Source: a virus. From it: a DNA stretch of 16,978 nucleotides. The notes below the pieces were generated by a model. The model ran no database searches. It was not told the origin of the DNA and was given only the letters and a program-made list of their open reading frames with translations. The stretch lies in the UHGV virus genome UHGV-0207004; one strand, written 5' to 3'. Both the position numbers and the translations under genes were made by a program. Numbering within the stretch: the stretch's first letter is position 1; each line of letters opens with the position of its first letter. Below are positions 1-16,619 of this stretch, piece by piece.

Positions 1-765
1 ATGAGACTGACTAAAGACATTAAAAACCAGATTCTGGCTAACATCCTGCGCGACCACGAAATCGCTACCGAAGCTAAAAAAATCATGATGGACTCTCGCA
101 ACCTGGCGTATGACATTACGTTGCGCTGTATGCCGGTAGGCATTCATTCGTTCGCCGAGCTACGTGCTCACATTGAAGCAATCAACGATGACCCGTCGCA
201 GATGTACGGCGTCTGCGTATACACCAACAAGGCGACATATCGTTTCGACTCTGACAGCCCGTATGGTATCGGCAGCGTTTATGACGCCACTTTCGAAATC
301 AACGCAGGCGGAAACGTTCGCACCTTGTCATTGAGCGGTGACGGACTCCAATACCGGGTACATCGCGGATACTGGGAGTATAAATACATGAATAAGTTGT
401 CTCCCGATCTCAGCGATATCGTACCGGGGTATGAGGAAATTATGTTAGCGTCAGTGTGCGAATTGGACGATGATGGAAAAGCGCTGCCGATATATAAGCC
501 ACGCGGTCGTATAGACTACCCGGCGGACCATGATTTCTGTAAGCGCCCAGACCCAAACACACCCAACCGCCGCGAGTTGCGTGCTAAGTATGATGCGTTC
601 AAACTAACTGTTACCGGCGTGCTGGATATGCACAATACCGATAAGAAGCTGATCAAGGCGTGGCCTGAAGTTGAACAGTTCATTCCTTACCCGGACAAGC
701 CGAAGTCCACGGCGGTGGCGCTGGACGTGAAGACGTTAAACGAAATCTGCGGTATTCCGCGCTAA
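1..765 (+). CDS. hypothetical protein (254 aa), convergent with the packaging operon
   Basis: ATG at position 1 (true start could lie upstream of the window); uninterrupted ORF ending TAA 763-765, followed a few nt later by a terminator hairpin; no motif I can assign. Confidence 0.5.
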   Translation: MRLTKDIKNQILANILRDHEIATEAKKIMMDSRNLAYDITLRCMPVGIHSFAELRAHIEAINDDPSQMYGVCVYTNKATYRFDSDSPYGIGSVYDATFEINAGGNVRTLSLSGDGLQYRVHRGYWEYKYMNKLSPDLSDIVPGYEEIMLASVCELDDDGKALPIYKPRGRIDYPADHDFCKRPDPNTPNRRELRAKYDAFKLTVTGVLDMHNTDKKLIKAWPEVEQFIPYPDKPKSTAVALDVKTLNEICGIPR

Positions 766-771
766 CAAAAA

Positions 772-800
772 GGGGGCCATTACGGCCCCCGAATTATTTT
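772..800. terminator. bidirectional rho-independent terminator shared by the convergent genes
   Basis: GGGGGCC (772-778) / GGCCCCC (784-790) perfect 7-bp stem with 5-nt loop; A-run 766-771 gives a T-run for the minus-strand transcript, and ATTATTTT 793-800 follows on the plus strand. Confidence 0.6.
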
Positions 801-1010
801 CTGCAACTCCAGCACCTGCGCCCTTAGCTTAGCCCCGCATTCCATATTTTTAACATCAACCAGCAAGTCTTCGTCTGGATCCGCCGAGGCATTCTCAAAG
901 GTGCAAGGCGGTCTATAGACCGACTCTGTTGGCGGCGTCGATGGCACGTTGCTTGATCCGCACGCGCTCATCATCAAAACTGCAATTAGTACGGTCAGGA
1001 CGCGTAACAT
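780..1010 (-). CDS. o-spanin-like outer-membrane lipoprotein (76 aa)
   Basis: ATG 1010-1008 with AAGAGG 9 nt upstream; N-terminal hydrophobic signal ending in lipobox-like LMMSAC; short Pro-rich mature region (PSTPPTESVYRPPC); overlaps out of frame with the 3-prime part of the upstream TM/coiled-coil protein, as in Rz/Rz1-type spanin pairs. Confidence 0.5.
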   Translation of the reverse strand: MLRVLTVLIAVLMMSACGSSNVPSTPPTESVYRPPCTFENASADPDEDLLVDVKNMECGAKLRAQVLELQKIIRGP

Positions 1011-1221
1011 ATTTCACAACCTCTTTCGTGATGGTCCGGTATTCCACATCGCGGGCTTGTTCGGCCTGCACTGCCCCCTCGACAACCTTAGTTTGCTGCC
1101 GTTGGGCTTTCGCTTGCGCTTCCTGCGCCGCGCTCGCCACAACGCCAGCGCGGTATGAATCGCCCAGCCAGAAGCCAACCGCCAGGCCGATAACCAATCC
1201 AATCGCTGCATACTTAATCAC
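913..1221 (-). CDS. i-spanin-like (Rz-type) protein, ~102 aa
   Basis: Track ORF starts at TTG 1251 with no RBS; GTG 1221-1219 is preceded by a GGGGG Shine-Dalgarno at 8 nt and is the likelier start. N-terminal TM helix (IKYAAIGLVIGLAVGFWLG) followed by a charged Ala/Gln/Glu-rich helical periplasmic domain; embedded lipoprotein gene in another frame. Confidence 0.45.
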   Translation of the reverse strand: MIKYAAIGLVIGLAVGFWLGDSYRAGVVASAAQEAQAKAQRQQTKVVEGAVQAEQARDVEYRTITKEVVKYVTRPDRTNCSFDDERVRIKQRAIDAANRVGL

Positions 1222-2317
1222 GCCATAACCCCCGGTTTTTAAGCTGTGCAATAGTCATTAGTTCGCCTGTGTCGGTGAACATCTTCGGCACTTTCACGCC
1301 GCGCATAATCTGGTCCGCGCGCTGCACCCCGTATAATTCCTCCAGAATATGGCGCGGCTGGCGCTGCACCCATGAGAAGAAATCAGTCTGCGCGTCGACT
1401 TGCTCACTCAGCAATCGACCCGCGTCAGCCTTCAGTGCCGGACGCTTACCACTGGGCCAATCTTCCATACCTTTGACTTTCCACGTCTCAGTCGAACGGC
1501 AGCAATAATGCAGCTTGCCCGGGCCAGCGCCATACTGCGATCCAGCCACCACTTTTCCGCCGCGCTTCCCTTTGGTGTCGGGAGTGACGTCAACAGGATA
1601 AAACAGGCGATCGCGTAGCTGGCACATAGGGGAGGTATGAGTGTCCAATGTAGCCAACCATTGGCGACCTTCGAGAATATCGTCATTTGCTTTCACCATT
1701 AATTCGCGGGCGGTCGCCGCATAGTGGTTGACTGCGGACTTAACCACGCTTGAGATGGCCTGCGCACTACGACCGCCGAGCGCGCGCCTTACGTCCGCAA
1801 TTATTTCCATAGTCGGCTTGCCCTGGATGAAGCCCGCGCGCACCTGATTGCCGATCTGCGTCCTGGCCCACTCAGAGAGTGAGTCAGGCCACTGCATCAT
1901 CGTATTACCCTGGAACGGGTTTTTCATAGCCGTCGCTGCAATCTGCGCACCGGAAACAACGCCCACTACCTCGACAGCAGGCACGGCGACCGCTGGCTGG
2001 ATCGCTGCCGTTAGGGTATCGACAAGATAATCGGCCTCCGAGTCGGCAAACTCCTGAAGGCTTTCCGCCAGCGCCTTAAACTCGGTGCGCAGTTCCGTCT
2101 TAACGGTCCTGTCGAGTTGCGCCAACAGCGTGGTAAGCGCCTTGTTATTCATGGCCTTTTTGCCATCAAGTAACTCGGTCAGCTTCCCCAGTAAAGTGGG
2201 CCGGAACTTCTCCCACATAGTCAGCACCCTTCGCGCCTGGTCATTGCTCAGGCGCTGGGTGAAAATGTGACGGCGGATCATGCGATCCGCCAGATGTTGA
2301 TTAATCGTTCTCGCCAT
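1214..2317 (-). CDS. head morphogenesis / minor capsid protein, Mu F-like (SPP1 gp7 family)
   Basis: 367 aa; ATG 2317-2315; motif TLDTHTSPMCQLRDRLF resembles the conserved core of the Mu F-like domain; sits directly after the portal gene as in many siphoviruses. Confidence 0.7.
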   Translation of the reverse strand: MARTINQHLADRMIRRHIFTQRLSNDQARRVLTMWEKFRPTLLGKLTELLDGKKAMNNKALTTLLAQLDRTVKTELRTEFKALAESLQEFADSEADYLVDTLTAAIQPAVAVPAVEVVGVVSGAQIAATAMKNPFQGNTMMQWPDSLSEWARTQIGNQVRAGFIQGKPTMEIIADVRRALGGRSAQAISSVVKSAVNHYAATARELMVKANDDILEGRQWLATLDTHTSPMCQLRDRLFYPVDVTPDTKGKRGGKVVAGSQYGAGPGKLHYCCRSTETWKVKGMEDWPSGKRPALKADAGRLLSEQVDAQTDFFSWVQRQPRHILEELYGVQRADQIMRGVKVPKMFTDTGELMTIAQLKNRGLWRD

Positions 2318-3821
2318 TGTCCGCTACCTTGTCCGGGTCTTCTTCGGTAGATTCTACCGCATCCGGGGACATTTGAGGCAATGGATTCTGATTTCGCAAT
2401 TCGTCTTCTACCTGCTCGACAGTTTGCGAGTCATCAATGACGCCCTGCGCCATCATCCACTTGATGAAGTCAGAAAGTCGGACCGTACCAGTCTGCACAC
2501 CCGCCATCATTGCAGTCATAAGCTGCGCATCAACCGAGATTTCAGTGTAGAACTTGTTCAGCGTCACGCGCTGGTCCGCAGTGTCGCCCGTGAATAGCTG
2601 GACGATTTGCAGCGCCCGGTTGAAAGCCTTCTCAACGTTACCGGCAATCAGTGACAGGATACTGTTGTCAGTCTGCGCATCGTAGGCCGCTTCGGTTGCC
2701 GTCTTAGGTGCGGTCCCCTTCTCAACCAGGGCCGCGCCAAGTTTAGCCATTTGCAATTCTCGGCGCTCACACAGTGCGACAGACAAGTTGCGCTCCTCGG
2801 CCTGGAGCAGTTTAGCGTCCATGTTCTGCCCCAGGATCACGCCCTTAGTTGCGCCGAGAGCAATGCCGCCCTTCAGGTTCTTGTCCGCCCATGATTGAGT
2901 CAGGCCCGTAGCAACGAGGGTCGGCTGGCCCACAATGTGCGCAATCTCGGCGACGTCCGCTTCGGCGTTGTAGTGCTTAATGTTGATGGACGCAATATCC
3001 GCCAGCGGCGCGGCGTCAGGCGATGCGTTGTTGTCTACCGCGCCACACCAGCAAAATGGTAGTTGCGTAAGCGCATTACCGGCAGCATCCACCAATGGCA
3101 CAAGGTCGGTGCGGGTGAAGCCGCGCGGCAAGTCCATTTGCACCTCGGACGTGTCCGCGTTGTAAAACCAGCGGCGGGCGTGTGCCTTGCCGTCAATCAT
3201 GCGAAGCTCGGTCCATATGGTTACTTCGTGGTTTGCGAAGTCGTCCGGGTCTTCGGTGCTGATTTCGTCCGTTTCCTTCAGCACGATTAGCGTGTCAACA
3301 CCGTGGGTCTGCCGCCAGTTGATGATCTGTTCTGCCGTATACAGGCGGATAAGCGGACGGTGCGCAGCCATCTCGGCGGCGGTCTGCGGCACTACGTTAC
3401 CCAGTTCATCAAAGTGGGCCTGGCGATCGTAGTCCACCATAAAGCCTGCGCGGCCCGATTGCAGAACTTCCGACATAGCGCCGCGCAGGAGTTGCGGCAA
3501 TGGCATACCGCTGCCGTCTACGTCGTCAATCAGGTCAGCCATCGCCCCGGAAAGGTCCAGACTTACCGGTTTTGCAAAGGCAACGCCCAACAGCGCGTTA
3601 AGTGTGCGGGCGGTGGCGTTCAGGAATACAGCGCGTTGCTTATACGCCTTATACCGCGCCCGTGATTTCGGGTCAGTATTGTCGCCGCTGGCGGGATGTG
3701 GCAGGTACAAAGGGCCGCACGCCTTCACGGCGCGCTCCCCTGCTACACAATCCCGGATCATTTTCCACTCTGGCGCGATGCGCGCATAGAGTGGGTGCTG
3801 GTTGTCAACGTTAACGGTCAT
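2301..3821 (-). CDS. portal protein
   Basis: 506 aa; ATG 3821-3819 with AAGGAA SD; lies between the terminase large subunit and the Mu F-like gene; acidic C-terminal tail; call is based on size and synteny, no diagnostic motif seen. Confidence 0.65.
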   Translation of the reverse strand: MTVNVDNQHPLYARIAPEWKMIRDCVAGERAVKACGPLYLPHPASGDNTDPKSRARYKAYKQRAVFLNATARTLNALLGVAFAKPVSLDLSGAMADLIDDVDGSGMPLPQLLRGAMSEVLQSGRAGFMVDYDRQAHFDELGNVVPQTAAEMAAHRPLIRLYTAEQIINWRQTHGVDTLIVLKETDEISTEDPDDFANHEVTIWTELRMIDGKAHARRWFYNADTSEVQMDLPRGFTRTDLVPLVDAAGNALTQLPFCWCGAVDNNASPDAAPLADIASINIKHYNAEADVAEIAHIVGQPTLVATGLTQSWADKNLKGGIALGATKGVILGQNMDAKLLQAEERNLSVALCERRELQMAKLGAALVEKGTAPKTATEAAYDAQTDNSILSLIAGNVEKAFNRALQIVQLFTGDTADQRVTLNKFYTEISVDAQLMTAMMAGVQTGTVRLSDFIKWMMAQGVIDDSQTVEQVEDELRNQNPLPQMSPDAVESTEEDPDKVADNGEND

Positions 3822-3831
3822 GTTCGTTTCC

Positions 3832-5217
3832 TTAGTAGAAGTCTACAGTTGGAACAACGGCGATTGGACGAATCACTGGGAACAGGTGCGCAATTGGATA
3901 GCCCGCGGCATCGTTCATGTGGTCCACCCCAGCGGTTTTATCCGGCTCGCCTTTCTTCAGGTCGTAAACCTGCTGTTCCAGGCATTTCGCTAGTGTAGGG
4001 CATTTATCCAGGTTGACAAAATACTGGCGCACGCCCTTAGCGTTGCACATCATCGTATTCATCGCGATCAATCTGTCTTTCACCGGTGGGTTGACGCTGT
4101 CGTATTCCACCTCGAAGCCCGCGTCTTCCAGTTGCGCGATATCCGACGACGATGCGTTTACGGTCTTACGAGACTTGCCACTGCTGTCCGGGTAAACGAC
4201 AACACGACCGGCAGCGCAATGATCGGGGTAGCGCTCCTCGATCGCCTCAATCATAGCCGGGGTATCAAACAAGTCCACAAATTCATCCACTGCGTGAATC
4301 TCGTCGCGGAACTCCTTATTCTCGGTAGTGCGCTGCCGTCTGACGTACACAACCGCCGCCATTTTCGTGACGTTAAAGTCCATTCCGATAATCAGCGTGT
4401 CATCCGGCTGCACTTCCTCGGTGCTGGCGTTCTCCTCACGGTTAAACATCTTGTAGACTGCGCCAGACGTGAGGTTTACAAACAAGCCGTTAAGATATGC
4501 GTCAATCAGGTTTGCAGGGTACTGGCTTCGCAGCGTGTCGATAAAGTCTGCCGGTAAGTGGTGGTTGTCGGTGGTCTTCGCCCGGATCAACCGTTTTTGG
4601 TTATCCTTCTCCACTTCGAAAATCTGATACATTGCCCGGAAGCCTTCCGGCGTGGACACGATGACAAACTGGCGCACCAGGCCCGCACGCAGACGACCGA
4701 GCAATTTGTGATACGCCGCCATTGCAACGTCTTGCTTCGTGGTGTCGAACTCATCGGCAACAATCCACGCGGCGTTAACACCGATAAGACGCGTGTAGTT
4801 CTCCATTGACTCGCAGATTACGCGGGTCCATTTGCCTTTCACCAGCACGCTATAGATCTTGTCCTGCTTGTTGAACTTCCACCGGAAGCCTGCCTCGTCG
4901 AAAGCCTTCTCCAGCTCCGGGTACATGATTTTCACCAGGAGTGGGATAGTCGGCTCGGTCACAATGCCGTCATGACCTGGGTTCAGTGTCAGAAGCTGGA
5001 TGACCTTACGCGCCGCGACCCATGACTTGCCGCCGCCGAAGCCGGAACACAGGCCGAGGATTTTGGTCTTTGTGTCGCGCAGTAGTTCTACCTGGTGCGG
5101 AAGGCAATCAGGTTGATACAGGCGGACGGCCTGGGCAACGCGCGTTGGGCGCGGTGGTCGGTTGCGCTTTGCAATCGCGCGTTCAAGTGCGCGGTTTTCT
5201 GCCGCATAGTTACGCAT
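3832..5217 (-). CDS. terminase large subunit
   Basis: 461 aa; ATG 5217-5215 overlapping the TerS stop (TAATG); Walker A-like GLCSGFGGGKS, Walker B-like WIVADEFD, C-terminal nuclease-like region (IIGMDFN...); position upstream of portal. Confidence 0.8.
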   Translation of the reverse strand: MRNYAAENRALERAIAKRNRPPRPTRVAQAVRLYQPDCLPHQVELLRDTKTKILGLCSGFGGGKSWVAARKVIQLLTLNPGHDGIVTEPTIPLLVKIMYPELEKAFDEAGFRWKFNKQDKIYSVLVKGKWTRVICESMENYTRLIGVNAAWIVADEFDTTKQDVAMAAYHKLLGRLRAGLVRQFVIVSTPEGFRAMYQIFEVEKDNQKRLIRAKTTDNHHLPADFIDTLRSQYPANLIDAYLNGLFVNLTSGAVYKMFNREENASTEEVQPDDTLIIGMDFNVTKMAAVVYVRRQRTTENKEFRDEIHAVDEFVDLFDTPAMIEAIEERYPDHCAAGRVVVYPDSSGKSRKTVNASSSDIAQLEDAGFEVEYDSVNPPVKDRLIAMNTMMCNAKGVRQYFVNLDKCPTLAKCLEQQVYDLKKGEPDKTAGVDHMNDAAGYPIAHLFPVIRPIAVVPTVDFY

Positions 5218-5768
5218 TACTCACCCTGGCCTTTGCCGATAGGTTCGACAACAACGTCGCCGTTATCATCTTCGTCATCATCCAGCGGAGCATCGTCGCG
5301 GACGCCGTGATTGGCTTTAAGCAGGAACGCAGCGAAGCCCGCCGCGATGGTGATGCCGCCCGCTTCCATCAGGAAAGTTTTCTGCAGCTCCATTGCGTCA
5401 GCCATCGCCTCGGCGAACTCCTCATGTGCGCGCGCCCAGCGGTACAGGCAGGCAATGCCTACACCAATATCCGCAGCAAAGCGACCGAGAGTCGGCATCT
5501 TATGGCGGGGGATGACTTGCGCAGCGCCCTTGTCGGAGTAGTTGATCTGCCAGGCTACGGCATCGGCAAAATAGCGGCGAAGCTGGTCGCAATACACAGT
5601 GCGGTAGTCGGTCGGGCGTCCACATTTGCCGCCTTTACGACGCTTGCCGTATTCGATCTCAGGTCCAAGATTGGTATGTTCGGTTTGCTCGCCTGGTTTA
5701 CGGCGCGGGGTGACTGCCACTCGACCGTCCAGTTTGGCGCGACGGCCCTTAACTCTGATTTCTGCCAT
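5217..5768 (-). CDS. terminase small subunit (183 aa)
   Basis: Track ORF (start 5867) trimmed to ATG 5768-5766, which has an AAGGG SD; basic N-terminus, HTH-like segment (TLGRFAADIGVGIACLYRWARAHEEF), acidic C-terminal tail; stop overlaps the TerL start. Confidence 0.55.
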   Translation of the reverse strand: MAEIRVKGRRAKLDGRVAVTPRRKPGEQTEHTNLGPEIEYGKRRKGGKCGRPTDYRTVYCDQLRRYFADAVAWQINYSDKGAAQVIPRHKMPTLGRFAADIGVGIACLYRWARAHEEFAEAMADAMELQKTFLMEAGGITIAAGFAAFLLKANHGVRDDAPLDDDEDDNGDVVVEPIGKGQGE

Positions 5769-5838
5769 GATATAAGCCCTTTTATGCATATGCGCCGACC
5801 ATCGGCAACATAGGAGACGGCCCTGCCATCTAAGGTGG

Positions 5839-5867
5839 ATTATAACAGGCACAAAAAAGCCCACCAA
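5839..5867 (-). promoter_or_regulatory. candidate sigma70-type promoter for the packaging operon (extended -10)
   Basis: Minus-strand reading: TTGGTG (5867-5862), 17-bp spacer, TGT-TATAAT (-10 at 5844-5839); overlaps the preceding terminator hairpin. Confidence 0.3.
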
Positions 5868-5878
5868 ATCGGCGGGCT
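5851..5878 (-). terminator. rho-independent terminator ending the phosphoesterase module
   Basis: On the minus strand: AGCCCGCC / GGTGGGCT stem (one G-U pair), 5-nt loop, followed by TTTTTTG (complement of 5851-5857); immediately downstream of the stop at 5886. Confidence 0.5.
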
Positions 5879-5885
5879 GGGAGGC

Positions 5886-6098
5886 TTAAACGGCGCGACC
5901 GTAGTATCGGGTTAACATGCTTTCAACTTCGCTTATGGCACCCTCTGTGTAGCGTATTTGAGATAGTATCTCGATCCGCTCACTGATAGACATGCCTATT
6001 GCCGCTGCCGTTCGTTCGAATCGGCGCAAGCCTTCTAGTTGTTTGCGTAGCTCTTTCAGGCGGGTGGCCTGCGTGCTCATGAATACTTGTCTAATCAT
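5886..6098 (-). CDS. hypothetical 70-aa helical protein, translationally coupled to the phosphoesterase gene
   Basis: ATG 6098-6096 overlaps the upstream TGA (ATGA); predicted helical, charged; followed by a terminator. Confidence 0.5.
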   Translation of the reverse strand: MIRQVFMSTQATRLKELRKQLEGLRRFERTAAAIGMSISERIEILSQIRYTEGAISEVESMLTRYYGRAV

Positions 6099-7237
6099 CT
6101 CAACATCTCCGGGCTAATGGTTAGGCGCGCCACTTCGCCGTAGTTGGCGCTATAGGTGATGACGTTAGCACTGCGTCCGGACATCCAACCGCCGCGGCTT
6201 GCGTATGCGTCTTTCGCGGCGAGCGTCCGGTGCTGCTCAACAATCATGTTACGGGATTCTACAATCTTCTGGTGGTGCAAGTGACCAACATGCGCGTAAC
6301 TGTACTCGCTCTCGCCAAATGCTTTCCTGAACTTAGAAATCATTACCGACTCGATGGCGTCAAAGCGTGCTTTGTGACCGTGGTGGAAAAACAGCGTGGT
6401 CTTACCGTGCTGCACCATCTTGTATACGTCCGGTGACGTGTCAACATCGACGCGCGGCTCGTTCTCGTACAGGGTGTTGAACATCTCCGCCAGCCAAATC
6501 ATACCAGACTCGTCATGATTGCCCTGGACGATTAGCAGTTTTACTTTGTGGTGCTTTCGCAGCGCCAGGTCTACTACGTTGCGCACCATGCGAATCATGT
6601 AGCGGACCAACTTCTGGTATCGGGTATCCGCGTCCAGGATATGACCACTGGCTGGAGTGACTGCGTCAAGGCTGTCAAAGTGCGCCATATCGCCGAGGAT
6701 ATTGATGACGGCAGTTCCTGCGTCTGGTGCGCGGGCGAAGGCTTCGACAAACCAGCGGTAAAACAGATCTTCGGCGATTGCCATATCCCAGTCCTCGCCA
6801 GTCTCCTCGCCCCATGCCAGCATTCCCAAGTGGAAGTCTGACACTGTGTACAGGTTGAGTAGGTCAAGTGCCTGGATCGGGACGGGCGGGGCGCTAACTG
6901 GTGCTGCCGGTGTGATTTCGCTGTTCATACCCTCGACAACAGCGAGCATTGCTTCGAGTTGGCGCTCCTTGTCCTGCTCGGTGATAACCCATGACATGAC
7001 CTCTTCGCCATTGCCACGCACCAGGGCGGATACACGCTTGACGCCGAATCCATCGGCAACGCGCTTACGGATCACAGCATCGTTGCCGTGCCCAATGCCT
7101 TTCTTCGACAGCCTGGCTTTGCGCATATAGACATTTCGAAGAGCAATGCCATATTTCTTCGCAATCTCTTTCGATGTAGTGCCAGCTTGCAATTCAGCGA
7201 TCAATTGCTCGTCGGTGATTTTAGTTTGCGGATGCAT
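6095..7237 (-). CDS. N-terminal HTH domain fused to a calcineurin-like metallophosphoesterase (380 aa)
   Basis: ATG 7237-7235. N-terminal HTH-like segment (TSKEIAKKYGIALRNVYMRKARL). Metallophosphoesterase motif set seen in the translation: SDFHLG (D-x-H), ILGDMAHFD (GD), QGNHDE (GNHD/E), HHGH, GHLHH (GH-x-H). Confidence 0.75.
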   Translation of the reverse strand: MHPQTKITDEQLIAELQAGTTSKEIAKKYGIALRNVYMRKARLSKKGIGHGNDAVIRKRVADGFGVKRVSALVRGNGEEVMSWVITEQDKERQLEAMLAVVEGMNSEITPAAPVSAPPVPIQALDLLNLYTVSDFHLGMLAWGEETGEDWDMAIAEDLFYRWFVEAFARAPDAGTAVINILGDMAHFDSLDAVTPASGHILDADTRYQKLVRYMIRMVRNVVDLALRKHHKVKLLIVQGNHDESGMIWLAEMFNTLYENEPRVDVDTSPDVYKMVQHGKTTLFFHHGHKARFDAIESVMISKFRKAFGESEYSYAHVGHLHHQKIVESRNMIVEQHRTLAAKDAYASRGGWMSGRSANVITYSANYGEVARLTISPEMLR

Positions 7238-7286
7238 ATTAATTTAATTCCTGATTGAGAGGACCTAGGACAATATACCACGGTCG

Positions 7287-7367
7287 CTATAGTAATTCGC
7301 AAATAACCATACCGACGAATGCGGCGGCGGACCAGATCGCTAATACCCAAATATCATTGCGTGCCAT
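7287..7367 (-). CDS. putative 26-aa hydrophobic micro-protein (MARNDIWVLAIWSAAAFVGMVICELL)
   Basis: ATG 7367-7365 preceded by GGAAGGAG at ~9 nt; single predicted TM helix; sits between the TTGGTTGCA promoter region and the phosphoesterase gene; below the ORF-track size cut-off, so hand-translated. Confidence 0.25.
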   Translation of the reverse strand: MARNDIWVLAIWSAAAFVGMVICELL

Positions 7368-7390
7368 AGTGTGTTACTCCTTCCCGTTGA

Positions 7391-7428
7391 TTGGTTGCAG
7401 TATGGCCTCTATGTTGGTTGCAAGTCAA
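7391..7428 (-). promoter_or_regulatory. promoter/operator region with two TTGGTTGCA 9-mers
   Basis: Perfect TTGGTTGCA at 7391-7399 and 7414-7422; on the minus strand TTGACT (-35, complement of 7423-7428) and a weak CATACT -10 at 18-bp spacing; directly after a terminator and before the micro-ORF and phosphoesterase gene. Confidence 0.4.
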
Positions 7429-7430
7429 GC

Positions 7431-7457
7431 AATAAAAAGCCCGGATAATTCCGGGCT
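7431..7457 (-). terminator. rho-independent terminator ending the lysis unit
   Basis: AGCCCGGA (7438-7445) / TCCGGGCT (7450-7457) 8-bp stem, 4-nt loop; on the minus strand followed by TTTTATT (complement of 7431-7437); 7 nt after the stop at 7464. Confidence 0.6.
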
Positions 7458-7463
7458 TCATGT

Positions 7464-7634
7464 TTACGCCTCCGGTTCTGCCGGTGGTTCCGGTGCCGCT
7501 GGTTCTGGCAGCTTCGCATCAAAAACACCAGCATGACTGATAGTGTCGGCGATAATGGCGCGTGCGCCAGGGTCTTCGGTTTTAGCCAGCGCGGCGAGCG
7601 CGTCGGCGTTATGATCAAGAATGCTTTTTAACAT
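7464..7634 (-). CDS. small protein with Pro-Glu-rich C-terminal tail (56 aa)
   Basis: Track ORF trimmed to ATG 7634-7632, preceded by GAGGAG at 7 nt; sequence MLKSILDHNADALAALAKTEDPGARAIIADTISHAGVFDAKLPEPAAPEPPAEPEA; no TM segment or lipobox, so not a spanin. Confidence 0.5.
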   Translation of the reverse strand: MLKSILDHNADALAALAKTEDPGARAIIADTISHAGVFDAKLPEPAAPEPPAEPEA

Positions 7635-7650
7635 ACTGTGTCTCCTCGTA

Positions 7651-8142
7651 TTACACTGCGTTACGTCCGATTTTCTCGGCAACGTCCCACTGCTTACCAT
7701 CGAATAGTGCCTGCCGACCGATTGCACGGCGGACAAGCCCCTTGAGCACTACCCCACCCTGCTTGCGGAATTGCGGCAGTGTAGCACGTACCTTCGCCCA
7801 GTCACCCAGGCGGACCGCATCATCGAAGTCACCGGCAATGTTGTCCGGCGTGATCGGGCCAGGACCGGTATTGATAACCAGATCCACCAGCGCGTCGAAT
7901 TGCGCCTGATTAATGCTCGGGTGTGCGTACTTGTTCACACAACTTTCGGCATACTCCACATCTCGCTTGAGTAGCTCCAGCGCTTCCGCACGGGTAATGC
8001 TCCGCGGCGGATTTGTGCCGGTGTGTCCATAGCCCCAGGTGTACAGGCCGCGGGCCTGCTCTTTCTTAGTCGCGAAATACGGCACTGGGCTGAATTGCTC
8101 CCATGCTGCCGTGAATCTTAGACCGTTGTCACTGAATCGCAT
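7651..8142 (-). CDS. endolysin, GH24 (T4/P22-lysozyme-like) muramidase
   Basis: 163 aa; ATG 8142-8140 with GGGG SD; from memory of P22 gp19-type lysozymes the translation shares SxNG...GxGHTG...NQxQFDAL...FNxG-type blocks; position after holin-like genes. Confidence 0.8.
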   Translation of the reverse strand: MRFSDNGLRFTAAWEQFSPVPYFATKKEQARGLYTWGYGHTGTNPPRSITRAEALELLKRDVEYAESCVNKYAHPSINQAQFDALVDLVINTGPGPITPDNIAGDFDDAVRLGDWAKVRATLPQFRKQGGVVLKGLVRRAIGRQALFDGKQWDVAEKIGRNAV

Positions 8143-8374
8143 GTTTTACCCCATTCAAAACAGCATTACGCAGTGTGCGCAATGCAAACAGCCAGATTAA
8201 CGCGGTCCAGGTGGCGTCAGATACGTCTCCCGTTTGCAACAGACCGACAATACAGGTCATTGCCGTTAGCAGATACAACACCCGACCGAAGAAGCCATCC
8301 TGAACGGATGGCGCGTACACGTTAAACAGGGACGATGCCCCGATAATCACAAACAACAGGACGGTGATAATCAT
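8129..8374 (-). CDS. holin/antiholin-like small membrane protein (81 aa)
   Basis: Track ORF (171 aa) trimmed to ATG 8374-8372, which overlaps the upstream TGA (ATGA) and has a GGGGGG SD; three hydrophobic segments; 3-prime end overlaps the endolysin start. Confidence 0.5.
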   Translation of the reverse strand: MIITVLLFVIIGASSLFNVYAPSVQDGFFGRVLYLLTAMTCIVGLLQTGDVSDATWTALIWLFALRTLRNAVLNGVKHAIQ

Positions 8375-8661
8375 TTTGCGCCCCCCGGAAGGCGGAACGA
8401 CGCAATCGTCTCCCTGATCCGGGCGGCGATTGGCATCCAGAAGATGGCTGTTACGAAGCCCAATCCGGCGACAGTTCGCTCGCCAGATAGGCCAGCCCAC
8501 TCGGCAATCGCTGGCGCACCGAAAATGGCACACAAGAAGCCGACCACGATGTATAACACGAAGTTTAATGGCCCTTTCGTGGCCTCGCCATGAATGCGAG
8601 CGCCAACGAATCCGCCTGCAAGGCACGCTAGGGCGAATAACCATTCGTTCAGCTTTTCCAT
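8371..8661 (-). CDS. holin-like membrane protein (96 aa, three predicted TM segments)
   Basis: ATG 8661-8659; hydrophobic segments WLFALACLAGGFVGARI, FVLYIVVGFLCAIFGAPAIA, GLGFVTAIFWMPIAA; charged C-terminus; first gene of the holin-holin-endolysin block. Confidence 0.55.
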   Translation of the reverse strand: MEKLNEWLFALACLAGGFVGARIHGEATKGPLNFVLYIVVGFLCAIFGAPAIAEWAGLSGERTVAGLGFVTAIFWMPIAARIRETIASFRLPGGAK

Positions 8662-8695
8662 AAAAAAGTCCCAGTAAGTTTTAGCTCACTGGGAC
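8662..8695 (-). terminator. hairpin plus T6 immediately abutting the holin start codon (tR-prime-like terminator or translational control element)
   Basis: GTCCCAGT (8668-8675) / ACTGGGAC (8688-8695) perfect 8-bp stem, 12-nt loop; on the minus strand followed by TTTTTT (complement of 8662-8667) and then directly ATG 8661. Confidence 0.5.
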
Positions 8696-8713
8696 TATAT
8701 CACGCTTGCATAG

Positions 8714-9001
8714 TTAATCGAAAATGGACCACTTACCGACGCCTTTCCATTCCCACCCTTCCGATCGGACGGCCTCGAACATACGGCCCCCGATCATATC
8801 CCGATACCACAGCCACCACATGCGCAGCTTGGTTGGGTGTTCGGTAATGCCGCGGCGCTTGTATATCTGGAACGTCATCCGGGTAATGCTGGCAGCTTCC
8901 ACGGCAGGCCATACCAGGAATACCCAAATAACTAACAACACTGCCGCGATAAGGCATAGTCCGCAGGCCAGCCCAAACCAATATATCATTTCGTGTAACA
9001 T
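8714..9001 (-). CDS. small membrane protein (95 aa), function unknown
   Basis: ATG 9001-8999 with AAGGGG SD at 8 nt; N-terminal TM helix, Trp-rich C-terminal half; caveat: two other frames are also open here, so coding status is uncertain. Confidence 0.4.
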   Translation of the reverse strand: MLHEMIYWFGLACGLCLIAAVLLVIWVFLVWPAVEAASITRMTFQIYKRRGITEHPTKLRMWWLWYRDMIGGRMFEAVRSEGWEWKGVGKWSIFD

Positions 9002-10531: not shown

Positions 10532-10680
10532 TATTAATCACGCGCATGAAAAAGTTGATCGCTATCTGCTGCAACTGCAAACTGCATTTTTCACTCTCCA
10601 TTCTGCAACTCGCATTGGTTGCCGAGTTCATCGACGACCGCAATTTGCATCATGTTGCCGTGGATTATGCAATCCTGGAT

Positions 10681-11000
10681 TTTATGCAGTCTCAGACGAG
10701 GGGGGTGCCAGACCCCCCGTCTAGTCTGAAAGACTGGGGTGCTGTCCCGCTGTCCCGATCGGCTAAAACCCGCGGCAGCACTGGCGGGGACGGGGTGCTG
10801 TCCCGCTTTGTCCCGCCTCAATTTTGTCCCGCTTTTGTCCCGTTTGTTTTATGCATGAAAACTGAATAGGTATGCACTTTTCAGAGGGGTGCCAGATCGG
10901 GACGTCCCGCCTGTCCCGCTTTTAGTTTATGCAATAAAAGTAAATAGGTATGCAGTTTTTGAGGGGCGGGACAAAACGGGACGTCCCGCTTGTCCCGCTT
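10681..11000. repeat. ORF-free iteron array: three imperfect ~75-bp tandem modules carrying GTCCCGC heptamers (~10 direct, 3-4 inverted copies)
   Basis: GTCCCG(C) at 10744, 10752, 10800, 10810, 10826, 10837, 10904, 10913, 10983, 10992 (pairs 8-11 bp apart); inverted CGGGAC at 10898, 10967, 10977; modules start TTTATGCA at 10681, 10849, 10926 and share GAGGGG(TGCCAGA) and AATAGGTATGCA blocks; no ORF of 60 aa or more on either strand. Confidence 0.7.
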
Positions 11001-11002
11001 CA

Positions 11003-11679
11003 TTATGCGGGGTTTTGTTGCGCCATTTCATCGAGCGCGATTCGTTCCATTAGCTTGATATCTTTAAACGCGCGCTGCTCGTTTTCGATACCGTGCATCT
11101 TAAATAACCATTCCAGCACGCCATAGTCGATGCCGTATGCGCCACCGAATCCGGTGCGCCATTGCGTAGAGCAATCTGTGAAGACTGCGACTACCTTCGC
11201 GTTGTCGGGCCATAGCGCAACAGGCGGGCAAACGTCTTCAGGTGCCGCGCCCCATAAACTCGCGGCTAAGTCCTCTGATGGTGGCGGCGGACCGTAAAAT
11301 CGCCTCGCCGCCTCAATTAGTTTTTTTCACGCAGTCCCATCAGTTCGAGATAGTACGAGGTGTGGAACACGCCAAACGCGCGCGGATAGTTTACCACCAG
11401 GCGGCGAACGTTCTCCGCGTTAAATTCGTCCGGCAGGTTCCAGCCTTCAGCGACGTGCATGATGGCCTCAACCATAACGTTAAAGCCATCCGGGTCGTTG
11501 TCGTCATATTCTGATAGCTTGCGTTCCGTTTCCTGCATGGTCTGCGAAAATTCGTCAATCGGGCGGTGGCGGACGGTAAACGTCATCTTGCCTGGTTCGT
11601 TCTCACCAGGGCGCGGGATCTCAATCGGCAGCTTAAAGGTCGGCTTAGGGTCAAGTGTGAAGAGTGGTGCTTTAGCCAT
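11003..11679 (-). CDS. tail assembly chaperone GT fusion (predicted -1 programmed frameshift product)
   Basis: Slippery run GAAAAAAAC (complement of 11320-11328) at the last codons of G; the -1 frame has a stop 2 codons upstream of the slip site, then stays open for ~105 codons to TAA 11005-11003 with no plausible start codon or SD of its own. Confidence 0.45.
11317..11679 (-). CDS. tail assembly chaperone G (120 aa)
   Basis: Track ORF (TTG 11694) trimmed to ATG 11679-11677 with GGAG SD; small acidic protein directly downstream of the major tail protein gene and ending in a slippery A-run. Confidence 0.55.
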   Translation of the reverse strand: MAKAPLFTLDPKPTFKLPIEIPRPGENEPGKMTFTVRHRPIDEFSQTMQETERKLSEYDDNDPDGFNVMVEAIMHVAEGWNLPDEFNAENVRRLVVNYPRAFGVFHTSYYLELMGLREKN

Positions 11680-11692
11680 TGTAATATTCTCC

Positions 11693-11718
11693 AATAAAAA
11701 AGGGGCCGTGCTGGCCCC
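11693..11718 (-). terminator. rho-independent terminator after the major tail protein gene
   Basis: GGGGCC (11702-11707) / GGCCCC (11713-11718) stem, 5-nt loop; on the minus strand followed by TTTTTTATT (complement of 11693-11701). Confidence 0.6.
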
Positions 11719-11748
11719 ATATTATCACTCGCTATTTAAGCGACCAAA

Positions 11749-12474
11749 TCAGGCGAGTGCCTCGACCAGGTCCTTACGGTAGATGACCATATCAGACTGC
11801 ATGGTCAGAGTGGATTGTACCGTTTCCACGTTGTTTACTTCAGCGGACGGAATCTTCTGGAAAGATACCTTAGCCGGGTAAATACGAATTTCACCTTTGC
11901 CGCTTGCTGCCGCTGGGTTAGTGAACTTAATCACAGTGGTTTTCTGTGTGTCGTCCAGGTCTTCCAGGATTGGGCGGATCGGGTCTTCTTCGTCGTGGGT
12001 GAAGGTGTAAGTCTGGACCAACGGGTTTTTCGTGGTGTTCAGACTGATCGCGGTGTTCACCTGCAACGGCTGGAAGGTAGTCGTCTGCTGGTCACCACCA
12101 GAAACAGCAACGTTAGTGATAAACGGGAAGTCGATAAAGTTAGCCACCTTAACCACTTCGCCAGGTGTACCCGCTGCAAAAGCCCCCGCCGGATATTTGG
12201 TCACATCCGAGGTGTCGAAGCGCGCGAGCGTGACGTCGTTGGTAGCCACTTTACCCACGATGAACGCGCGGTTCTGCGCGCGGACCCACGGAGATTTAGT
12301 GAACATTACCACGTCGCCAACTTTCAGACCGTGAGACGCCGCGCAGGTGATTACGCAACCAGTGGTAAGGTTGGAGATCGACGCGGTGGCGTTGGAAGCT
12401 GCCGTAACAGCGATGCCGCTGCCCAGTACGGACCCAATCTGGACGCTGGACCCGTTAGGAAGTTGATAACCCAT
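11749..12474 (-). CDS. major tail (tube) protein
   Basis: 241 aa; ATG 12474-12472 with AGGAG SD; Gly/Ser/Thr/Val-rich beta-type composition; followed by a terminator and a chaperone gene with a frameshift, the canonical siphovirus arrangement. Confidence 0.55.
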   Translation of the reverse strand: MGYQLPNGSSVQIGSVLGSGIAVTAASNATASISNLTTGCVITCAASHGLKVGDVVMFTKSPWVRAQNRAFIVGKVATNDVTLARFDTSDVTKYPAGAFAAGTPGEVVKVANFIDFPFITNVAVSGGDQQTTTFQPLQVNTAISLNTTKNPLVQTYTFTHDEEDPIRPILEDLDDTQKTTVIKFTNPAAASGKGEIRIYPAKVSFQKIPSAEVNNVETVQSTLTMQSDMVIYRKDLVEALA

Positions 12475-12534
12475 AATGAAGCTCCTGTTTAGATATACGG
12501 ATTAATGATACAGCACGCGCAGAATTGCGCCAAA

Positions 12535-12957
12535 TCAGGCGCAACAGCTATACATGATTGATACCACGATGCGGGCGCGGTCAACATCCTCGACCACAGA
12601 ACTGGTATATGGCGCGTCCTGAAGCTGGAAAGCCGCGCCATCGATCTTGACGCCATGCCATTTGTCAGACGTCGCGATGGCGTCCGCCAGTTCGCTCGCG
12701 TACTGTGTGCCCGTGCCCGCAGGGAACACAACGGCAACCTGGTAAACGCCTGCATAGATCCGGCCTTTCTGCTGAAGGCCAGCAAACTGGGTCGGGGCCG
12801 GTAGCAGGTACGGCTCCAGGTAGACGCCATTACCGTTTGCGTGGTCGCCCTTCACGTTCTCCCAGTTAACCTGGATCGGACGCTGGTTAGTGCTCAGGCT
12901 AACCGCCAATTCTTCTACTACGCTGTTAAGCGCCTTGCGGATTAGAGTATTGCTCAT
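12535..12957 (-). CDS. head-tail joining / tail terminator-like protein (140 aa)
   Basis: ATG 12957-12955 overlapping the upstream stop; call is from position between head-tail connector genes and the major tail protein only. Confidence 0.4.
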   Translation of the reverse strand: MSNTLIRKALNSVVEELAVSLSTNQRPIQVNWENVKGDHANGNGVYLEPYLLPAPTQFAGLQQKGRIYAGVYQVAVVFPAGTGTQYASELADAIATSDKWHGVKIDGAAFQLQDAPYTSSVVEDVDRARIVVSIMYSCCA

Positions 12958-13550
12958 TATTTCACCTTAGAATTGATTTCTGCCGCCACAACGCGAACAA
13001 TCCCCGCTGGCGCTTGTTTACTCCAGCCATACTCCAGTCGCTGCGCATACGGCACATTATTAGTAAACCAGATCGATCCGTATTCGCCAGAATCGTAATG
13101 CGCCAGCACGTCACGCCCTGCGGCTAATGTTGCCGTTCCAGCCTTGTCCACTCTGTCGATAGCGCCGACAGCCGGACGGTCGAAAGTCACCTGCCAGTTT
13201 CCCCGGAAGCGTCCGCCGGTGTAATTCTTCGCGGCCCAGCCACGCTGGCGAAATGTGACGTTGCCGTCTTTAGTCTTAAACGAGACGAGCACACTTGCGT
13301 GTTTCTTCTGCCCGCGCTTCAGTTTGCCGCCATTCTTGCGGCGCTGTGCGGCGTTCACCTTGTTCGCGTGCTGGCGGGCCATCGCGAACGCCCTGTTAAT
13401 CTTCCACCGGCGGGGGTCGCCCACCGGGGAAATCTCAATCAGGCGTCCGAGTATTTGCATACCGGTCGCCCGCACCGCCTTGTCGTTATTCTCCTTCGTC
13501 TTTTCCACCCAGGTGGCGATGGTGGCGGCGAACGAGTAGACCTCAGCCAC
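12957..13550 (-). CDS. head-tail connector family protein (197 aa), possibly HK97 gp10-like
   Basis: GTG 13550-13548 with AAGGGG SD at ~5 nt; synteny between capsid and tail genes; family assignment is from recollection, not a search. Confidence 0.4.
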   Translation of the reverse strand: MAEVYSFAATIATWVEKTKENNDKAVRATGMQILGRLIEISPVGDPRRWKINRAFAMARQHANKVNAAQRRKNGGKLKRGQKKHASVLVSFKTKDGNVTFRQRGWAAKNYTGGRFRGNWQVTFDRPAVGAIDRVDKAGTATLAAGRDVLAHYDSGEYGSIWFTNNVPYAQRLEYGWSKQAPAGIVRVVAAEINSKVK

Positions 13551-13551
13551 A

Positions 13552-13905
13552 TTAGCCCCTTAGCTGTAATTGAAACAGCATGGTAGTTCCCGCCGGTTGC
13601 AGTGGATTTGGATTGATAACACGGTAGTCCGTGCTATTCAGGTTGACCAGATCGCCTACCTGCACTTGCTCCGATGCCTGGCATAAGAACTTAACGTCAC
13701 CGGCAATGATACGAGTCCCGTCGATCTCGCTGGGCTTGTACTCCTCGCGAAGACCGATGACATCAAACGACGTTGGCGGGATAACCACTTCTTCGCCGCC
13801 TACGCGGTCAACAGACCCCGGACGCGTCACCTTAACGGTCATGCCGTATTTTTTAATCAGCGGATTTACTTTCCGCTTCAAGCCTGCGTAGTTAAAGCCC
13901 GCCAT
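13552..13905 (-). CDS. head closure / head-tail adaptor-like protein (117 aa)
   Basis: Track start GTG 13914 abuts the SD; ATG 13905-13903 has GGAGGG at ~9 nt and is preferred; synteny. Confidence 0.45.
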   Translation of the reverse strand: MAGFNYAGLKRKVNPLIKKYGMTVKVTRPGSVDRVGGEEVVIPPTSFDVIGLREEYKPSEIDGTRIIAGDVKFLCQASEQVQVGDLVNLNSTDYRVINPNPLQPAGTTMLFQLQLRG

Positions 13906-13906
13906 T

Positions 13907-14002
13907 TTATTCACCCTCCGGCGCTGGTTCTGGTTCTGGTTCTGGTTCTGGTGGCTGTTTGGTATTTGCGGCGATAACAGCCGCGAGTAATGCAGGATTC
14001 AT
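13907..14002 (-). CDS. 31-aa mini-protein with (Pro-Glu)4 repeat (MNPALLAAVIAANTKQPPEPEPEPEPAPEGE)
   Basis: ATG 14002-14000 one nt after the upstream TAA, AGGGG SD at ~5 nt; stop TAA 13909-13907 one nt before the next ATG; fills an otherwise unexplained 97-nt gap; resembles the C-terminus of the 56-aa protein at 7464-7634. Confidence 0.3.
   Translation of the reverse strand: MNPALLAAVIAANTKQPPEPEPEPEPAPEGE
13925..13953. repeat. hexanucleotide tandem repeat (TGGTTC) x4 plus a partial copy
   Basis: TGGTTC at 13925, 13931, 13937, 13943, then TGGTG; encodes the PEPEPEPE stretch on the minus strand. Confidence 0.85.
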
Positions 14003-14003
14003 A

Positions 14004-14504
14004 TTAGCCCCTGTACACGTCAAAGTTACCGGCGGCGTTGCCGTCTGTGTTCACCCAGTAGCCCAGCAGGCCATCCCACCACGGGAAAGACACACCACTA
14101 CCAATCGACGCAGCGTCATACTCCATCGTGATCGGGCCTACCGTTTCGCGGATAGTCTCCTTTCCATCGCCGATCGGAGAAATATCAACATCGTCAGCCA
14201 CCAGCATTGCCAGCCGGTAAACGGCTTGTTCAACGGCAACGGGGATTGATGCGAAGTCTACAATCTGCCCAGCAGGTACTACTGCCAAATCTTCGGTAAG
14301 CGTGTTCAGTACCGGCTTACCGTCTGATGGGTAGTTGATGCGGGGCCATGCGTCAATTCCGGTCGGGTCCGCCGGTTCGCCGATCCAGGCGATGCCGTTG
14401 AGGAAATCATTAACTATGGTAAGGTGTCGCGTTGCATCGCCCTGCGTAATTTCAACGCCTCGCGCCGCGGCATAAACAACGAAGGTTTGCGGGTCGCCAT
14501 ACAT
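14004..14504 (-). CDS. head-tail connector / head completion candidate (166 aa)
   Basis: ATG 14504-14502 with AGGAG SD at 8 nt; first gene after the capsid terminator; synteny only. Confidence 0.45.
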   Translation of the reverse strand: MYGDPQTFVVYAAARGVEITQGDATRHLTIVNDFLNGIAWIGEPADPTGIDAWPRINYPSDGKPVLNTLTEDLAVVPAGQIVDFASIPVAVEQAVYRLAMLVADDVDISPIGDGKETIRETVGPITMEYDAASIGSGVSFPWWDGLLGYWVNTDGNAAGNFDVYRG

Positions 14505-14517
14505 TTTATTTGCTCCT

Positions 14518-14543
14518 ATAAAAAAGGCGGGCTTATGCCCGCC
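14518..14543 (-). terminator. rho-independent terminator after the major capsid gene
   Basis: GGCGGGC (14526-14532) / GCCCGCC (14537-14543) 7-bp stem, 4-nt loop; on the minus strand followed by TTTTTT (complement of 14520-14525). Confidence 0.6.
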
Positions 14544-14562
14544 CCTTTGGGATTTGCGCCGA

Positions 14563-15663: not shown

Positions 15664-15730
15664 ATCGAAATCCTTTGAGTTGTGAGCATTCGCCCAGTGA
15701 CGTTAATGTTACCTTAGATTTACGCGCTCG

Positions 15731-15756
15731 CAAAATCGCCCGCTTTCGCGGGCGAT
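15731..15756 (-). terminator. attenuator-like hairpin between scaffold and capsid genes
   Basis: ATCGCCCGC (15735-15743) / GCGGGCGAT (15748-15756) perfect 9-bp stem, 4-nt loop; on the minus strand followed by only TTTTG (complement of 15731-15734). Confidence 0.35.
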
Positions 15757-15760
15757 CTGC

Positions 15761-16465: not shown

Positions 16466-16555
16466 GCTATCCCCCTGGGATTGTGGCAGAGCGGGCCACC
16501 CGCTCGACTTCACGCCTCTAATATTATCAGCGATAAAAATAATCGCAAAATTCGC

Positions 16556-16599
16556 TTGCAATCCTGGTGTTGGTTGCATATATTGGTTGCACACCAACA
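16556..16599 (+). promoter_or_regulatory. plus-strand sigma70-like promoter overlapped by two TTGGTTGCA sites, in a divergent intergenic region
   Basis: -35 TTGCAA (16556-16561), 17-bp spacer, -10 TATATT (16579-16584); 9-mer copies at 16570-16578 and 16583-16591; the 21-mer 16579-16599 is the reverse complement of 10484-10504; a GAGCGGG/CCCGCTC hairpin at 16489-16505 lies in the scaffold gene leader. Confidence 0.45.
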
Positions 16600-16619
16600 G
16601 AGATATGAAGGAAAACAAG

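Follow-up and report, generated by a model that had tools for sequence, protein, structure and literature searches.

A probable overlapped spanin pair of the Jersey family, set downstream of the MuF-like gene and apart from holin and endolysin, in a Dhillonvirus-like phage sequence

Two overlapping genes occupy positions 780–1221 on the minus strand of the 16,978-nucleotide phage sequence analysed here (UHGV-0207004; the whole stretch is referred to as the window). The i-spanin gene (913–1221, minus strand) starts with a GTG at position 1221 and encodes 102 amino acids; it was assigned from a match to PHROG 2536, 'Rz-like spanin' (E = 1.4e-35), a membrane anchor and conservation in 20/20 Dhillonvirus sequences. 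The o-spanin gene (780–1010, minus strand, ATG start, 76 amino acids) was assigned from a lipobox, matches to PHROG 5672 (E = 1.2e-25) and PHROG 1267 (E = 2.9e-12), both named spanin, and equally complete conservation. A Pfam search with both proteins matched no model and returned only a sub-threshold match to DUF6919. The o-spanin ATG lies 211 nt downstream of the i-spanin GTG and is therefore in the +1 frame, and the gene runs 133 nt beyond the i-spanin stop. The 98 nt shared by the two genes (913–1010, minus strand) are dual-coding, specifying the C terminus of the i-spanin together with the signal peptide and linker of the o-spanin.

Each gene is preceded on the minus strand by a Shine–Dalgarno-like motif: GGGGG at 1229–1233, 7 nt upstream of the i-spanin GTG and within the 3′ end of the MuF-like gene, and AGAGG at 1020–1024, 9 nt upstream of the o-spanin ATG and within the i-spanin gene. 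The first 8 nt of the i-spanin gene also belong to the MuF-like gene, whose stop codon is at 1214–1216. At the other end of the pair, 3′ of the o-spanin stop, a GC-rich hairpin with T-runs on both strands (772–790; −18.3 kcal/mol, z = −3.26) is terminator-like for both the spanin transcript and the convergent Nmad5 gene.

The Kyte–Doolittle profile of the i-spanin (19-residue window) peaks at 2.02 over residues 1–19 (MIKYAAIGLVIGLAVGFWL), where Lys3 precedes an N-terminal membrane anchor of approximately residues 4–20 (1162–1212, minus strand), and the same scan of all 102 residues revealed no second hydrophobic stretch. Beyond the anchor, Ala, Gln, Arg and Glu are abundant and there is a single Cys. 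An AF2 single-sequence model of low confidence (mean pLDDT 62.7), used for secondary structure only, places helices at residues 4–72 and 82–99, with a break at 73–81 around the Cys; residues 24–48 were favourable in a crude heptad count, which is not a validated coiled-coil predictor. In the o-spanin, a PROSITE PS51257-style rule identified the lipobox VLIAVLMMSA↓C, with Arg3 in the n-region, Cys17 (codon at 960–962, minus strand) and Gly at +2. The mature part of the o-spanin comprises 60 residues, including Cys36, Cys58 and 7 Pro; it is Pro-rich towards its N-terminal end and has no hydrophobic segment after Cys17 (19-residue Kyte–Doolittle maximum 0.48). The periplasmic cysteines (one in the i-spanin, Cys36 and Cys58 in the o-spanin) are invariant across the Dhillonvirus set. 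The pair thus has the anchor, the lipobox and the +1 overlap by which overlapped two-component spanins are recognized (Summer et al. 2007; Kongari et al. 2018). The sequence-only reading had described a transmembrane protein with an out-of-frame, Pro-rich lipoprotein gene overlapping its 3′ end; its coordinates were exact, and the description is confirmed.

To assess conservation, we compared the window with 19 further Dhillonvirus copies of the pair (4 GenBank loci and 15 IMG/VR loci), giving 20 distinct sequences. All 20 keep both ORFs, the GTG start, the 76-aa length of the o-spanin, its Cys17, Cys36 and Cys58, and the i-spanin Cys. The i-spanin occurs as two alleles, of 102 aa in 6/20 genomes and 109 aa in the other 14; the overlap with the o-spanin measures 98 nt in the shorter allele, which the window carries, and 119 nt in the commoner, longer one. 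Across the 20 sequences, nucleotide diversity at codon positions 1, 2 and 3 was 0.069, 0.038 and 0.217 in the i-only part (i-frame) and 0.081, 0.050 and 0.233 in the o-only part (o-frame), and was flattened across codon positions in the overlap. This pattern is the signature of two real overlapping coding genes under purifying selection in both frames.

At the nucleotide level, the window spanins are 91–92% identical to those of most short-allele genomes, 76.5% identical to those of the divergent locus L020 and 83–87% identical to those of long-allele genomes. The window MuF-like gene is 90–93% identical to its counterparts in the short- and long-allele groups alike (83% for L020), and pairwise identities of spanins and MuF correlate (r = 0.61). 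The allele pattern within Dhillonvirus is ordinary local mosaicism.

The sequence-only reading had also held this to be the only spanin-like pair, and six-frame scans agree, having turned up no further candidate and no canonical spanin in the rest of the window or in Pandora71, a relative with a complete genome. A scan for ORFs with a lipobox left the 76-aa gene as the sole candidate among real genes of the window: the three other lipobox ORFs are short; two run antisense to portal and terminase, and the third occupies another frame of a gene whose function is unknown. In neither the window nor Pandora71 did the scan find an ORF combining a lipobox with a C-terminal anchor, as in u-spanins of the T1 gp11 type. 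Pandora71 has only one other genuine lipoprotein, the 73-aa product of ECPH3_37, which was rejected as an o-spanin: it lies among tail genes, has only a weak Cor-like signal-peptide match, and adjoins a gene matching a PHROG described as a membrane protein in the moron/host-takeover category.

Two other window genes were considered for a part in lysis. The 95-aa membrane protein (8714–9001) was rejected as an i-spanin, having no paired lipoprotein; it matches PHROG 2531, of unknown function, and a terminator-like hairpin lies between its gene and the holin genes. Disruptins of the phiKT gp28 type are small cationic amphipathic peptides encoded in the lysis cassette. The 56-aa ORF that follows the endolysin gene (7464–7634) was rejected as a spanin or disruptin substitute because it is acidic (4 K/R versus 10 D/E) and has neither an anchor nor a lipobox; it shows no hydrophobic segment, in keeping with the sequence-only reading, which had noted the absence of a transmembrane segment and a lipobox, and matches only PHROG 11068, of unknown function.

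To place the pair in its genomic setting, we searched positions 1–9000 of the window by megablast. The search returned 158 phage records. Query coverage was 80% or more, at about 90% identity, for 96 of these, almost all of them siphophages of Escherichia or Shigella in the genus Dhillonvirus (HK578-like). Between 780 and about 9700, every gene lies on the minus strand. In order of transcription, the 95-aa membrane protein gene is followed by two holin-family genes (a holin at 8371–8661 and a second holin or antiholin at 8129–8374), a soluble lysozyme-type endolysin gene (7651–8142; Pfam Phage_lysozyme, E = 3e-21; the holins and the endolysin together match PHROGs 2359, 2508 and 7), the 56-aa ORF and a calcineurin-like phosphoesterase gene (6095–7237). 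There follow a 70-aa ORF, terS, terL (3832–5217), the portal gene (2301–3821), the MuF-like head morphogenesis gene directly upstream of the i-spanin (1214–2317; PHROG 241, E = 1.1e-115) and the i-/o-spanin pair.

From the endolysin stop (7651) to the i-spanin start (1221), we measured 6,429 nt, with six or seven genes between, in line with the proposal that the spanins follow a Mu F-like gene some 6 kb from the holin and endolysin. The same proposal had the holin and endolysin genes ending at a terminator. A terminator-like hairpin does exist (7436–7459), but it comes after the 56-aa ORF, not after the endolysin gene itself; a second such hairpin between endolysin and spanins lies at 5858–5878. 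A scan for sigma-70 promoters yielded 7 promoter-like sites against 6.1 expected, which is not above chance. To judge by strand, spacing and hairpins only, the spanin genes would be co-transcribed with the packaging genes.

The window and full-length Dhillonvirus genomes are not colinear. Positions 11749–16699 encode scaffold, major head, adaptor, head closure, neck and major tail proteins, and this run of genes, which follows the spanins in the reference genomes, precedes the early small genes in the window. In a blastn comparison with Pandora71, window positions 10682–16599 correspond to reference positions 16669–10745 and window positions 10574–10876 to reference positions 44694–44391, so that the two matches overlap. 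The references contain a direct repeat of about 195 bp in two copies (84.6% identical), one between the tail chaperone and tape measure genes and the other ahead of the early genes. A single, hybrid copy of this repeat is present in the window, which lacks the approximately 28 kb between the copies, a stretch holding tape measure, tail tip, fibre and replication genes. The repeat is packed with the octamer GCGGGACA, present in 7 copies in the window versus 0.86 expected; wherever the sequence retrieved spans both sites, the octamer forms two clusters, as it does in Pandora71 (complete genome) and in 9 of the 15 IMG/VR loci.

The end of the window, 16978, maps to position 5771 of phage SM_A2, and its first base is that of the Nmad5 ATG, which would lie at about 5770 by analogy with SM_S22. 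If this Nmad5 position holds, the window looks like a rotated circle of 16,978 bp joined across the approximately 195-bp repeat, either through assembly collapse or as a real recombination product. GenBank OK272475.1 (Escherichia phage JLBYU27, 'complete genome'), at 16,547 bp, shares this topology, with about 88% identity at the junction. A 49-nt sequence spanning the junction had no match in collections of viral and metagenome contigs, nor did megablast against E. coli genomes and plasmids yield one. The conclusion on the spanins is unaffected by the circle because their 6.4-kb separation from the endolysin is the same in full-length genomes.

For HK578-like phages, the pair has already been published, as have the overlapped layout and the separation from holin and endolysin; none of this is new. 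Kongari et al. (2018, PMC6139136) placed HK578, JL1, SSL-2009a, EP23, EK99P-1 and SO-1 in the overlapped Jersey i-spanin and o-spanin families, which have 27 members and also include Jersey, SETP3 and K1G. They distinguished a shorter subfamily, 'EP23 to SO-1', in which a linker joins two helices, and noted two constant Cys and conserved prolines in the o-spanins. The window pair is a direct member of this family, being overlapped and having a short-subfamily i-spanin, whose low-confidence two-helix prediction agrees with the published description, and an o-spanin with two conserved non-lipid Cys. We found no substantial difference, the window having the 102-aa/98-nt allele and not the commoner 109-aa/119-nt one. 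Protein identity is 86% (i-spanin) and 79% (o-spanin) to the pair of locus L017 (43,741 bp; putative HK578), and 44% and 40%, respectively, to that of Jersey. For the Dhillonvirus vB_EcoS_P78, a 2025 paper reports holins as genes 0031 and 0032, the endolysin as 0033 and an Rz-like spanin as 0040, which is the same spacing as in the window. The genome announcement of the Kagunavirus Schulenburg likewise describes holin/antiholin and endolysin genes that are genetically separate from the spanins.

The window pair departs from the canonical contiguous lysis cassette (lambda S-R-Rz/Rz1), in which the spanins directly follow the endolysin. Like lambda Rz/Rz1, it combines a type II inner-membrane protein with an outer-membrane lipoprotein encoded in the +1 frame, periplasmic Cys and a Pro-rich o-spanin, and the membrane-fusion mechanism is presumed to be alike. 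However, lambda Rz1 is wholly embedded in Rz, whereas the window o-spanin gene extends past the i-spanin stop; the lambda pair comes directly after the endolysin gene R, whereas the window pair lies 6.4 kb downstream of the endolysin stop; and we saw no significant sequence similarity between the two pairs (no Pfam match). The LysB/LysC pair of P2 sits in the lysis cassette and belongs to a different sequence family. Its architecture is overlapped, as is that of the window pair (Kongari et al. 2018 tables). In T4, PseT.3/PseT.2 have a separated architecture, in contrast to the overlapped window pair, belong to a different family and are not embedded in a head-gene operon. The T4 spanin genes are also not near t and e (Kongari et al. 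2018 Fig. 8 legend, PMC6139136), so unlinked spanins are an established situation.

On these grounds, we consider that positions 780–1221 in all probability encode a functional overlapped two-component spanin of the Jersey family, HK578/EP23 subfamily, at the MuF/scaffold position typical of the lineage. The spanin function, which is very likely, is read from sequence features and from homology to families that were themselves defined bioinformatically. That the role of the family was defined in this way, and that the genes are not beside the endolysin, would fit a membrane protein and a lipoprotein with another job, such as superinfection exclusion or receptor masking, while something else disrupts the outer membrane; phage lipoproteins such as Cor and Llp have exclusion roles. 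We regard this as very improbable, given that the pair has the full spanin feature set (type II anchor, +1 overlapped lipoprotein gene, periplasmic Cys and Pro-rich linker), that both proteins match spanin PHROGs with homologues in canonical cassettes, and that the six-frame scans turned up no alternative spanin or u-spanin, the acidic 56-aa ORF not being disruptin-like.

As a spanin, the pair may be expected to act along the lines of lambda Rz/Rz1, by analogy with which we infer transcription, sorting, complex formation and fusion. The two genes would be transcribed late, with the packaging and head genes, and translation of the i-spanin is probably coupled to that of the MuF-like gene, since its start overlaps the MuF stop. 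The N-terminal anchor of the i-spanin would enter the inner membrane, leaving the helical domain in the periplasm. After export, the o-spanin would receive its lipid at Cys17 and undergo cleavage by signal peptidase II; its +2 residue is Gly and not Asp, so sorting to the outer membrane is expected, and the Lol pathway should take it to the inner leaflet of that membrane. The C-terminal regions of the two proteins would then pair across the periplasm, with homotypic disulfides formed through the conserved Cys. Once holin and endolysin have removed the peptidoglycan, the spanin complexes would fuse the inner and outer membranes and so finish lysis.

To understand how the spanins came to be separated from the holin and endolysin, we compared gene order across related genera. 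In Jersey, the holin, a second holin-like gene, lysin, five small genes, terS, terL and portal are followed by head morphogenesis, decoration, a small ORF, the i/o-spanin pair, scaffold and major capsid; extra reverse-strand genes lie between terL and portal (a homing endonuclease) and between portal and head morphogenesis (a hypothetical gene). The holins, lysin, terL, MuF and spanins of Jersey are all homologous to those of the window. Dhillonvirus and Jerseyvirus thus have in common the order holin-holin-endolysin-[variable small genes]-terS-terL-portal-MuF-[0–2 genes]-i/o-spanin-scaffold-major capsid, and the Kagunavirus Schulenburg shares with the window the part from terS to scaffold. 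Schulenburg has a homologous i/o-spanin pair between its capsid morphogenesis and scaffold genes, although an HNH endonuclease gene, a decoration gene and a reverse-strand sliding-clamp gene separate MuF from the spanins there, whereas MuF and the i-spanin gene overlap in the window. The split is found in at least three genera, Dhillonvirus, Jerseyvirus and Kagunavirus, and therefore predates them. Judging by gene order, the separation is long-standing and conserved in Dhillonvirus and Guernseyvirinae, not the outcome of a recent disruption.

The sequence-only reading had suggested that a block of phosphoesterase and packaging genes was inserted into an ancestral lysis cassette, splitting a contiguous holin-endolysin-spanin arrangement. 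Such an ancestor is conceivable for the spanin module, in that a PHROG 2536 i-spanin directly follows the lysozyme in Klebsiella phage 2 LV-2017. However, the terS-terL-portal-MuF block is core and homologous in Jersey, where it has the same order, as does the terS-to-scaffold part in Schulenburg, and inserting four essential packaging/head genes into a lysis cassette is not parsimonious. The phosphoesterase had no tblastn match in the Dhillonvirus loci L013 and L019, both of which are still split, and its 75%-identical copy in Jersey is at another position. Without a match in two loci where the split persists and located elsewhere in Jersey, it is a mobile, variable accessory gene and not the cause of the split. 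The comparisons make block insertion highly unlikely, and for any recent event it is already contradicted.

The spanin module itself has moved between contexts at some point, because the PHROG 2536 i-spanin is found in differing surroundings. In the lambdoid Klebsiella phage 2 LV-2017, the lysozyme and then the spanin precede the terminase; Vibrio phage pYD38-A has its endolysin, holin and PHROG 2536 i-spanin downstream of portal and MuF, from which three reverse-strand genes separate them. These unrelated contexts are one argument for the idea that the module reached the MuF–scaffold slot by modular exchange in the common ancestor of Dhillonvirus and Guernseyvirinae, with allele exchange continuing since. 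Others are the two segregating spanin alleles (6/20 versus 14/20), by which spanin identity differs and MuF identity does not, and the varying content of the adjacent slot, where the reverse-strand gene is Nmad5 in the window, one annotated as sliding clamp or DNA polymerase III beta in some relatives and another ORF in HK578. Nevertheless, the correlation of spanin and MuF identities and the homology of the Jersey holins and endolysin to those of the window mean that all the lysis genes may have co-descended in their present places. We hold modular exchange to be a possible origin, though on balance an unlikely one; it concerns origin only and is compatible with spanin function.

A further reading of the split sets the lysis genes after MuF in pYD38-A beside those before the terminase in the Klebsiella phage. 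The split might then be a remnant of two ancestral positions of the lysis cassette, Dhillonvirus and Guernseyvirinae descending from a recombinant that kept the holin and endolysin of one and the spanins of the other. We think this improbable; if true, the conserved placement of the spanins between MuF and scaffold, together with the overlap of MuF stop and i-spanin start seen in the window, would tie spanin dosage to head assembly.

The pair at 780–1221 offers little new biology, and its value lies in annotation: of the five related GenBank records that we opened, none has it complete, the i-spanin with its GTG start being absent from three, the o-spanin absent from one and a 52-aa truncated o-spanin given in the fifth. 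Distance from the endolysin is evidence neither against spanin identity nor for recent rearrangement. Where Dhillonvirus phages are to be engineered, or their lysis modules judged for completeness, the spanins should be looked for downstream of the MuF-like gene.

The gene order of the window was not colinear with that of full Dhillonvirus genomes. Positions 10682–16599 comprise a head-to-major-tail block that is fused to the leader of the early genes; the junction (10574–10876) runs through a ~195-bp direct repeat present only once, as a hybrid copy. In reference genomes this repeat is present in two copies with ~28 kb between them. The window lacks the genes for the tape measure, the tail tip and replication. 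Window positions 1 and 16978 are apparently neighbours in the reference genomes, and the window therefore resembles a rotated circle of 16,978 bp. We observed the same topology in the GenBank record of phage JLBYU27 (OK272475.1), a 'complete genome' of 16,547 bp. The circle may have originated by assembly collapse across the repeat, or it may be a real, repeat-mediated subgenomic circle.

The octamer GCGGGACA was clustered at 10743–10998, with seven copies observed versus 0.86 expected. Its copies lie mostly in one orientation and are irregularly spaced, about 10–90 bp apart; repeat units of ~78 bp with TGCATA...TGCATAAA motifs interleave the cluster, and a hairpin follows. Dhillonvirus genomes have two GCGGGACA clusters each, one 5' of the early genes and the other separating the tail chaperone gene from the tape measure gene, a pattern that held wherever the fetched sequence covered both sites. 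These clusters may represent operator, iteron or promoter arrays.

The calcineurin-like phosphoesterase gene (6095–7237, minus strand), whose product has a weak N-terminal HTH-like match, is an accessory gene. A tblastn search with the phosphoesterase gave no match in the fetched stretches of two Dhillonvirus loci (L013 and L019). Salmonella phage Jersey encodes a homologue (Jersey_24) that is 75% identical, on the other strand and at a different position. A slot whose content varies across relatives separates the spanin pair from the scaffold gene. In the window, this slot holds a gene for a nucleotide modification associated domain 5 (Nmad5) protein (1–765, plus strand; Pfam E = 9.7e-54), which is on the opposite strand to the spanins and convergent with them, with one hairpin common to both. 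In some relatives the slot is occupied by a gene whose annotation reads sliding clamp or DNA polymerase III beta subunit, and HK578 has a different reverse ORF of 155 aa.

Two small minus-strand genes lie on either side of the holin and endolysin genes. Directly upstream of the holin genes, and separated from them by a strong terminator-like hairpin (8667–8696), is a gene for a 95-aa protein of PHROG 2531 (8714–9001; function not assigned). The protein has a membrane segment at its N-terminus, and its C-terminus is rich in Trp. Possible roles for this membrane protein are regulation of lysis or exclusion. After the endolysin gene comes a 56-aa ORF (7464–7634; PHROG 11068, function not assigned), beyond which lies the lysis block's terminator-like hairpin (7436–7459). 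The product of this ORF is acidic, with a tail rich in Pro, Glu and Ala (PEPAAPEPPAEPEA). Its first ~42 residues are kept in most relatives (several tblastn matches were identical), and the tail is variable.

None of the five related GenBank records examined (comparison loci L001, L002, L003, L005 and L025) annotates the spanin pair completely. Pandora71, mckay and SM_S22 lack an annotation for the i-spanin and Shigella phage 1b lacks one for the o-spanin, and in the JLBYU27 record the o-spanin was called as a truncated protein of 52 aa. PHROG 5672, a spanin family matching the o-spanin, is short (47 positions) and covers just o-spanin residues 32–76; its alignment may therefore have been built from truncated calls of this kind.

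Comparison of window positions 913–1010 with the same region in loci L001–L023 revealed two spanin alleles circulating in Dhillonvirus. The allele carried by the window has an i-spanin of 102 aa ending in ...RVGL and a gene overlap of 98 nt; the second has an i-spanin of 109 aa ending in ...GVGTATAVQVR and an overlap of 119 nt. The o-spanin linker differs accordingly, reading VPSTPPTESVY with the 102-aa i-spanin versus VPLMPLTESAL with the 109-aa form. The identity of the spanin allele is decoupled from that of the neighbouring MuF gene.

The Roufvirus Vibrio phage pYD38-A (L007, 4250–9234) has an endolysin, a holin and a PHROG 2536 (Rz-like spanin) i-spanin downstream of its portal gene and head morphogenesis gene, with three reverse-strand genes in between. 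The position that holds only the spanins in Dhillonvirus can thus accommodate a full lysis cassette.
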